64,000 bases of DNA. Origin: Schmidtea polychroa. Its lineage: Eukaryota. This document shows, in pieces, positions 58,301 to 60,189 of this stretch (position 1 is the first letter of the stretch; each line of letters begins with the position of its first letter). Made by a program: the position numbers and the translations under genes. The stretch covers positions 10,914,001 to 10,978,000 of the forward strand of contig CM097885.1 in NCBI GenBank assembly GCA_044892525.1. The letters are read 5' to 3'. The notes below the pieces were generated by a model. It saw nothing but the letters and a program-made list of their open reading frames with translations. It made no database searches and had not been told where the DNA came from.

Positions 58301-60189
58301 AACACTTATGATCCTTATTTTTAACATTAATAATTGCTCCTTTAGATTTCAAATCTGCGGGTGTACGAATGTAACTATGACCAGATAGGCGACAAATAGG
58401 AGCAAATTTAGTCAGAATGAAATCAATCTCTAAGATATTAATTACTCTCCAGCCACTACCTAAATAGGTAAACATTTCAATTTTTTCGTTTAACTTATTA
58501 ACTCCCTCAATTAAAAAGTTATCCGAAAAGATCTCGGCGTTATTTGAAAAGTAGTTGTCACGGATTTCCCCATCTTTTTCAAATCTTATAAGAATAGCGA
58601 ATTGAATTTTGACGCTACCCATGTTATTTATTTCAGATGTTAACTTTTCAGTGATTTTATCCGTTATTATAATTTTAATTAATTGTGAATCGGCAATATT
58701 AAATCGAATAGTTCGAATGGCGCCATTTAAATTTGATTCTATTATCGGCTCAATCGCTAAAGATGATCCACCTATTTGATTTATAGTATTTATAGTATTA
58801 TCATTATTTATATTTTCATTTATAGCATTTATAGTATCAATATTATCATTTATAATATCATGATTTATAGTATATGTAATATTATTACATTCGTCATCAC
58901 TGAGTAGAATGACTTCATTTTTAATAATTTCGTCGTCACTGATCTCAATAACTTCAGTTTTTATAATTTTATTTTTAATTTTAGACACCCTATGTTCAGC
59001 AGGTCTTTTATTAGATTTCTTTTTTGTGTTATTATTTAAAATATTTACAATTTCAATGTTATTCTTATTTATTATTTTAAACAGTTCTTGTTTATTTGTT
59101 TTGAAAGAATTTAAGTGCTGAGAATGTTGACTATAAAATTCCTTATACCTTACACTCTGGGAAGTTTTGCATATGGGGCAAATAAAAAAGTTGATGCCAT
59201 TAAAAGGTTGGCGATAATATTTCTTCATATTTTTGTGGCATTTATTGTCATGACCCATAGACGAATTACAATATTTAGGATAAAATTTGCCTAATAAAAG
59301 TTAAATAATTATTTATTGAATGAAAATGTATTATTTATTTAATAATAATAATAATAATAATAAATGTAATTTAATCTTTCATTTAAAATTTGTCTATAAT
59401 ATTATCAACTATAAAATAATTAGTTAATGTTAAATAATGCTAAGTTATTAATATTATTATTATTATTATTATTATTATTATTATTATTATTATTATTATT
59501 ATTATTATTATTATTATTATTATTATTATTATTATTATTATTATTATTATTATTACTACTACTACTATTACAATTACTATTATAATTATTACTATTACAA
59601 TTACTATTTTAATGATAACTGAAATAATTTACATAAAGTTATATTTACATTATATTTACATAAAATCTATATTATTATTAAGTTATTAATTAATTAAAAA
59701 CTATATATTAATAAAATGAAACATACATTTTGATTCGTTATTCGAAACTGAGTCCCCAATAGGGATGGGAGCATTCAAATTATACGCAACGGAGGTATCC
59801 ACTACTGCGGCATTTATTATTGGAAAATTCTTGTTATGAGAAACAGAAGATTCTAAAATGTTAATGGTAATACAATTTTAATTAAACTAATAAATTACCA
59901 TTTTGGAATATGTTTGAAATATCTAATATGTCGTCATTTTCGGTAATTGCGGCCCAATCACCAAAATAATTGTCTAAATAATAAAGATAATAATAATAAT
60001 TAAAGTATTTATAATAATTATAAATATACCATTTCCATCATTTCCAGAACCTAATCGCCTATTGAAGACTGACGAGTTAACGGTACGAGTTTCTAATTGT
60101 AAATTTAATTATTTAATATAAATAAATAAATAAAAATCCTTACCATTTCTCGAAAGAACCACATTGATTTTAGTATTAATTGATGACAT
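55356..60189 (-). CDS. polB: Protein-primed DNA polymerase B, predicted 5 exons (60189-60144, 60092-60030, 59973-59899, 59852-59727, 59290-55356), 1414 aa
   Basis: vOTU-like NKDHKCFLYS..HY; exonuclease YADFES and HNLRGYD; EndoVII/HNH-like CYLC..RDHDHFTG..CRKCN; polymerase YIDINNLYGWA, KLYNNSLYGK, GDTDS, DDKR. Four GT-AG introns keep one open frame. Confidence 0.9.
59450..59570. repeat. (TAT)n/(TAC)n microsatellite inside predicted pPolB intron 4
   Basis: Direct reading. Confidence 0.95.

Follow-up and report, generated by a model that had tools for sequence, protein, structure and literature searches.

We identified a split 5′ end in the DNA polymerase gene (pPolB) of a Polinton element located in the window, which is the whole 64,000-nucleotide stretch of DNA analysed here. 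Four mini-exons run in one frame into a large exon, and the codon divided by the last junction becomes a cysteine that is conserved in relatives. Given this layout, the intron phases and the reading frame that exons 3 and 4 keep between subfamilies, we infer that the gene is very likely spliced. The account that we consider probable is that a five-exon pre-mRNA is joined in one main form, and that the leader it encodes has grown by duplication.

The element and the 5′ layout of pPolB

The Polinton, designated element B, extends from position 53339 of the window to L081:7596 and comprises 17,258 bp. Its terminal inverted repeats are 1216 bp long and 99.7% alike, and it is flanked by a 6-bp target-site duplication, as expected for the ends of a Polinton/Maverick element. 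The element encodes an adenain-like protease (60467-60870, minus strand), recognized by a match to PF00770 (E 7e-7 at 60470-60805), as well as open reading frames (ORFs) that by eye are of the integrase, packaging ATPase, and major and minor capsid kind (L081:816-1589, L081:2176-2811, and window positions 60871-62154 and 62446-63528). The latter two gave no Pfam match. A further ORF inside element B (L081:3624-4157) resembles, by eye, a TATA-binding protein, and L081:2928-3356 looks like a fragment of a hAT-type transposase.

Element B interrupts another Polinton, element A, whose polymerase gene it splits in the C-terminal region (52867-53338 and L081:7554-10000). ORFs of element A at 44179-52851 are capsid, PLA2-integrase, ATPase and protease-like, and the C-terminal segment of its polymerase seems to be present as two tandem copies that have a similar tail (52288-52851 and 52867-53352, minus strand). 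The window also contains a host gene at about 8850-30050 (plus strand), which we take to be ACBD3-like from its GOLD-like and Gln-rich exons. This gene has both short (46-47 nt) and long introns, and fragments of retroelements lie within its introns.

The pPolB gene is on the minus strand. Exon 1 (60189-60144; 46 coding nt from the ATG) is followed by intron 1 (60143-60093; 51 nt), exon 2 (60092-60030; 63 nt), intron 2 (60029-59974; 56 nt), exon 3 (59973-59899; 75 nt), intron 3 (59898-59853; 46 nt), exon 4 (59852-59727; 126 nt) and intron 4 (59726-59291; 436 nt, holding a TAA microsatellite). The large exon (59290-55356), which begins at the acceptor at 59290, encodes the rest of the protein. 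All four introns have GT..AG ends and are of phase 1, every exon is open in the running frame, and the frame of the mini-exons continues without a stop into a 1314-codon polymerase ORF at 59300-55356. Retention of any of the introns leads to a stop within 18 codons, in the case of intron 1 at codon 11. The exon and intron sizes, the ends, the phases and the single stop-free frame had been described in a first-pass annotation and are confirmed here, as is the sequence AAATG/GT shared by donors 1-3; donor 4 reads AAAAT/GT. The 114 residues that the annotation credited to the upstream exons are correct if one counts as far as the first ATG inside the large exon (59258), which is preceded by 11 residues of that exon. 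The mini-exons alone supply 310 nt, corresponding to 103 codons and one base. The annotation's statement that ORF callers miss this structure is likewise supported.

The GC content of the mini-exons (110/310; 0.41 in exon 2) exceeds that of introns 1-3 (16/153; Fisher p 2.6e-9), a test that is partly circular because the exon boundaries came from the earlier annotation. The GT..AG ends, the AT-rich bodies and the frame that is open after removal are traits of U2-type introns, and we are highly confident that the introns at the 5′ end of pPolB are real. Upstream of exon 1 we found an imperfect palindrome (60266-60293, without strand assignment), 24 of whose 28 nt are kept in both of the subfamilies described below, and which is a possible candidate for a promoter element. 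An ATG inside the palindrome was considered as a start and rejected, as in either subfamily its frame closes within 10 codons.

Copies in the genome, a second subfamily and metagenomic relatives

Judging from its sequences, the element family is young, because all 40 scored matches (of 159 candidates, the window included) are identical over 59700-60300. A protein search in which 132 of 8117 candidates were scored identified 101 copies that are 97-100% identical, and 31 copies, 95-96% identical, that constitute subfamily 2. Thirty copies were selected for 100% identity across exons 1-4, so the invariance of their exons proves nothing. Intron 4 keeps its ends in all 30, with lengths of 385-469 nt that differ from 436 by a non-multiple of 3 in three copies. 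Five of six less identical copies are without an exon indel, and one of the six has an intron 4 that is longer by 1.2 kb. Intron 2 is shorter in L076 (53 nt) and L079 (51 nt), with GT..AG retained, and L077 cannot be aligned in the region that precedes exon 4. In three older copies, exon 4 carries eight nucleotide changes that result in seven amino-acid changes, with no sign of purifying selection. These changes fit decay after insertion and lend no support.

Fourteen of the 31 copies of subfamily 2 were fetched for comparison. Their DNA upstream of the large exon is not alignable with that of the window; a global DNA alignment upstream of the acceptor was meaningless and was set aside, and exons and introns were instead read directly from the sequence. 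The position of the acceptor AG is identical in both subfamilies. In one copy (L062), the introns are 47, 44, 53 and 1601 nt long, all GT..AG and of phase 1, and the internal exons 63, 63 and 87 nt; the first exon has two candidate forms, one from an ATG at L062:489 and a longer one from 448. We compared 16 pairs of exon peptides, with 5000 shuffles each (floor p 2e-4), and two pairs were significant. The acidic peptide of exon 3 matches the first 63-nt exon of L062 (score 57, p 2e-4), and the exon 4 peptide matches the 87-nt exon (score 42, p 2e-4), in both cases best in the predicted frame pair only, among nine frame pairs. No significant partner was found within the 16 pairs for exons 1 and 2 or for the second 63-nt exon of L062, and exon 1 is, on sequence grounds, the least supported of the exons.

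The last mini-exon of subfamily 2 is 87 nt long in 11 of the 14 copies, 51 nt in two (L069 and L070, in which the loss of 36 nt preserves the frame) and 86 nt in one (L071). The last intron measures about 1.5-2.2 kb in 13 of the 14 copies; in L062 (895-2495) it contains extended runs of TAA, and a block in its interior is duplicated. The first-pass annotation had proposed to check whether indels among sister copies are confined to introns and whether splice dinucleotides are kept. Length changes do fall in introns, and exons 3 and 4 are kept in frame; the exceptions are L075, which has lost donor 3, and L071, whose last mini-exon is 1 nt short. Polymerases that are 96% identical, joined to unrelated leader DNA and a different set of exons, show fast turnover of both exons and introns at the 5′ end.

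We examined ten close metagenomic loci. Strong candidate introns of 40-53 nt lie upstream of the match in five of them (L090, L105, L093, L095 and L107, of which L090 and L105 are near twins), and in three (L083, L085 and L092) an ATG stands just before the Cys motif, with no intron there; L094 and L099 were left out of both classes. Their candidate phase-1 mini-introns occupy positions other than those in pPolB of element B, within L095:130-469, L107:447-979 (behind the zinc fingers) and L105:526-828. Eight internal exons were picked by hand from L095, L105, L107 and L093; the length of each is divisible by 3, and each is open in phase 1. L095 contains near-duplicate 66-nt exons, and two of its exons share the same first 21 nt; as checked on this locus, tandem copying of exon-plus-intron blocks leaves frame-symmetric exons. 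The first-pass annotation had compared the short pPolB introns with those of the ACBD3-like host gene. Two candidate introns of that gene, at 9030-9075 (46 nt) and 9164-9210 (47 nt), do match them in size, and the adaptation to the host spliceosome that the annotation deduced rests on these two. The match does not speak for adaptation, because candidate introns of 40-53 nt also occur in relatives from unrelated environmental samples, and the clade may simply have inherited its short introns.

The protease and integrase of element B also appear to need splicing. The protease gene has a candidate intron of 38 nt (60838-60801, minus strand; GTAAGT..AATAG, phase 2), and within its exon 2 the catalytic His region is not preceded by any ATG. 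The candidate intron of the integrase gene (L081:1085-1174, minus strand; 90 nt, phase 1) is a microsatellite whose read-through translation is poly-Ile. An ATG in frame is also missing from the 5′ end of the integrase gene, close to the gene upstream, and this end may be spliced as well.

Polymerase domains, the junction cysteine and possible splice forms

The large exon encodes, in order, a Cys/His module and zinc finger, a low-confidence linker, a terminal-protein domain (about 58751-58404, minus strand), a vOTU domain (about 58391-57939, minus strand), an exonuclease region that carries an endonuclease-VII-like insert, and the polymerase. Relatives of pPolB are 36-57% identical and many have PF03175, which identifies it as a protein-primed family B polymerase; Pfam returned only a weak endonuclease VII match for the pPolB query itself. 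A structure model of a pPolB fragment, based on 89 sequences (mean pLDDT 80.5), contains a confident N-terminal finger, followed by the linker and by alpha/beta domains at about 180-295 and 300-450. A fold without alignment (pLDDT 32) was not usable. Residues 1-13 of the large exon have pLDDT <50, and the split Cys is outside the modelled fragment. In the numbering of this fragment, ungapped rows keep Ser278 in 88 of 88 cases, Cys329 in 88 of 89 and His442 in 89 of 89. These residues sit where the available text of 10.1101/2024.03.18.585575 places those of the terminal-protein and vOTU domains, and thus provide the linking Ser/Tyr of D1 and the catalytic Cys and His of D2 that characterize TP-vOTU-pPolB proteins. 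Their near-invariance supports the earlier proposal that the spliced 5′ end precedes a terminal-protein/vOTU polymerase. Among predicted structures, a protein of Drosophila-associated adintovirus 2 scored best (E 1.7e-26); fold searches returned no OTU match, and a fold search of the PDB gave no match at E 0.001. The linker contains two hydrophobic-then-acidic motifs (about 58900-58960, minus strand) that we presume to resemble SUMO-interacting motifs. Similar motifs are encoded by an extra mini-exon of subfamily 2 (L062:692-754), and element B also encodes a RING protein at 54435-54992.

The last base of exon 4 turns the split codon at the last junction into Cys. The same codon is Gly if the large exon is joined to exon 1, 2 or 3, or is read in the unspliced frame, and the rule that only the last mini-exon yields Cys holds in both subfamilies. 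We predict that the split Cys is the first cysteine of a zinc-binding module. A His-Cys-Met pattern matches 6 of 45 close relatives, four at the N terminus and two in an internal finger. In all four N-terminal cases the frame is continuous and contains a Cys that precedes the His by 8-12 residues, and by eye the same is true of L083, L092, L094 and L107. The exon 4 junction is supported as coding because this Cys is conserved in the continuous frames of relatives. When longer proteins were searched with the peptide of exon 4 and with the 63 residues that open the large exon, no match was obtained, which is weak evidence, and a scan of viral contigs found no relative.

No splice junction was seen in the contigs that were compared with exons 1-4 and with the large exon; a joint across intron 4, which contains a long repeat and is never covered whole, could not appear. 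Runs with the stretch 59690-60290 were available as contigs only, none of them on record as RNA. In run X1, which is RNA by guess, contigs tile 55300-59290, none lies on 59291-59335, and record 8 (109 nt) ends exactly at the acceptor at 59290. The junctions that the first-pass annotation had proposed to look for thus did not appear, and the stop in X1 is a weak hint of splicing that comes from one run of contigs, which can be filtered out, and that cannot tell one splice form from several. X1 contains 0.61 of the words over 59690-60290 compared with 0.51 expected from the exons alone, a value that was not counted as no X1 contig lies there. X4 contigs pass unspliced through exons 1-4, have an adaptor-like loose end and look like DNA. 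X2 and X3 contributed low-likeness pieces only, and in X6, X7 and X8 parts of the large exon are covered and the junction is not reached.

The symmetric exons could be cassette exons that are skipped in combinations, giving several N-terminal forms, up to eight according to the first-pass annotation; in one version, skipping of exon 4 serves to remove the Cys. All internal exons are indeed multiples of 3 bounded by phase 1 introns, the leader tolerates changes in length such as the shorter last mini-exon of L069 and L070, and the contig end at 59290 would fit a branch, possibly with two different upstream exons. However, the branch is equally explained by spliced versus unspliced RNA, no skipped form was seen in the contigs, and duplication alone yields the symmetry, as in L095. 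Moreover, in both subfamilies the four combinations without exon 4 carry Gly at the conserved Cys. Free skipping is therefore disfavoured, as half of the eight forms would lose this residue, and we regard the cassette explanation as unlikely. It is similarly doubtful that an animal Polinton clade depends on the host spliceosome, resizes its leader by copying symmetric exon-intron blocks and uses exon 4 as a splice switch, in which inclusion would complete a zinc site on the terminal-protein part and skipping would generate a Gly form with another activity. If such a switch did exist, the host cell type could gate the element.

Alternatively, the polymerase may be made from an in-exon ATG (59258 or 59231), and the upstream GC islands may be untranslated exons or the remains of another gene. 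The zinc finger and the terminal-protein, vOTU and polymerase domains are all encoded within the large exon, and some relatives (P0007, P0008, P0012-14 and P0022) are called from a Met matching the in-exon ATG. However, these calls come from ORF-type callers that ignore introns, and neither the one-frame peptide conservation of exons 3 and 4 nor the junction Cys is expected of untranslated DNA, which makes this origin of the protein very improbable. Chance AG/GT pairs in AT-rich, microsatellite-rich DNA, in which both dinucleotides are abundant (46 GT and 32 AG sites within 1.1 kb), are hardly credible as the source of the layout, because the diverged subfamily 2 keeps homologous exons in frame, and layout, phases and frame are repeated there with different DNA and in several metagenomic relatives.

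We favour one main splice form. The pPolB gene would be transcribed as a five-exon pre-mRNA, from which the host spliceosome would make one predominant product with an additional leader of ~103 residues that is probably disordered. The exon 4 join would complete the first Cys of the predicted zinc-binding module, which precedes the terminal-protein, vOTU and polymerase domains. The mini-exons may have arisen by tandem copying and loss of exon-intron blocks in floppy parts of the protein, with blocks surviving only if they are multiples of 3. If the vOTU domain cuts behind the terminal-protein domain, as proposed in the available text of 10.1101/2024.03.18.585575, the leader would stay on the protein bound to the DNA end.

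Comparison with known systems

By its ends and its polymerase, element B is a standard Polinton, and it departs from the intronless state described for such elements. It shares the terminal inverted repeats, 6-bp target-site duplication, adenain protease and pPolB, and judging by eye also genes of the integrase, ATPase and capsid kind, with the animal Polintons/Mavericks (eupolintoviruses; the ‘Alpha’ adintovirus PolB class with OTU and PF03175, as given in the accessible part of PMC8502044). According to the portions of the sources at hand, the core genes of vertebrate Mavericks are intronless (PMC8097293, citing Kapitonov and Jurka 2006), as are those of a nematode Maverick, which has introns in cargo genes only (10.1101/2022.07.12.499685). 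In contrast to these intronless core genes, which are a trait of described Mavericks and no formal criterion, pPolB has four candidate introns here, and the protease and integrase have one each.

The TP-vOTU-pPolB polyprotein of preplasmiviricots, as described in the accessible sections of 10.1101/2024.03.18.585575, agrees with the protein studied here in the placement of the Ser (D1, after helix 2 and before the last strand), of the Cys (start of a D2 helix) and of the His (a D2 strand), whereas our protein has an extra Cys/His module, a zinc finger and the putative spliced leader ahead of D1. The available text of that study and of PMC8502044 does not mention splicing. Splicing of a Polinton pPolB is not described in the accessible parts of PMC8097293, PMC8502044, PMC6431247, PMC12166617, PMC8532177, 10.1101/2023.08.22.554363, 10.1101/2024.03.18.585575 and 10.1101/2022.07.12.499685. 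Introners, as presented in the available text of PMC12166617, are recent insertions of intron-making transposons in dinoflagellate eupolintoviruses. They have in common with our case the presence of intron-type sequence in Polinton-like elements, but the introns reported here are family-wide, all of phase 1 and clustered at the 5′ end of pPolB.

According to the accessible part of PMC8532177, differentiation brings expression of Polintons in planarians, and SMEDWI-2 represses them. The host of element B is presumably a planarian, judging from features of its genome. That ~100 near-identical copies would need nuclear splicing for core genes bears on where and when such elements replicate. As Mavericks are annotated as intronless, ORF-based pipelines would truncate pPolB at its start and overlook a protease gene that is spliced, and they may treat active families as defective.

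In adenoviruses, pol and pTP are spliced to a short upstream leader exon. The adenovirus polymerase is a related protein-primed enzyme whose start lies in an upstream exon, as proposed here for pPolB. The adenovirus genes, however, have one tiny leader exon and a long intron, whereas pPolB has four mini-exons and introns of 46-56 nt.
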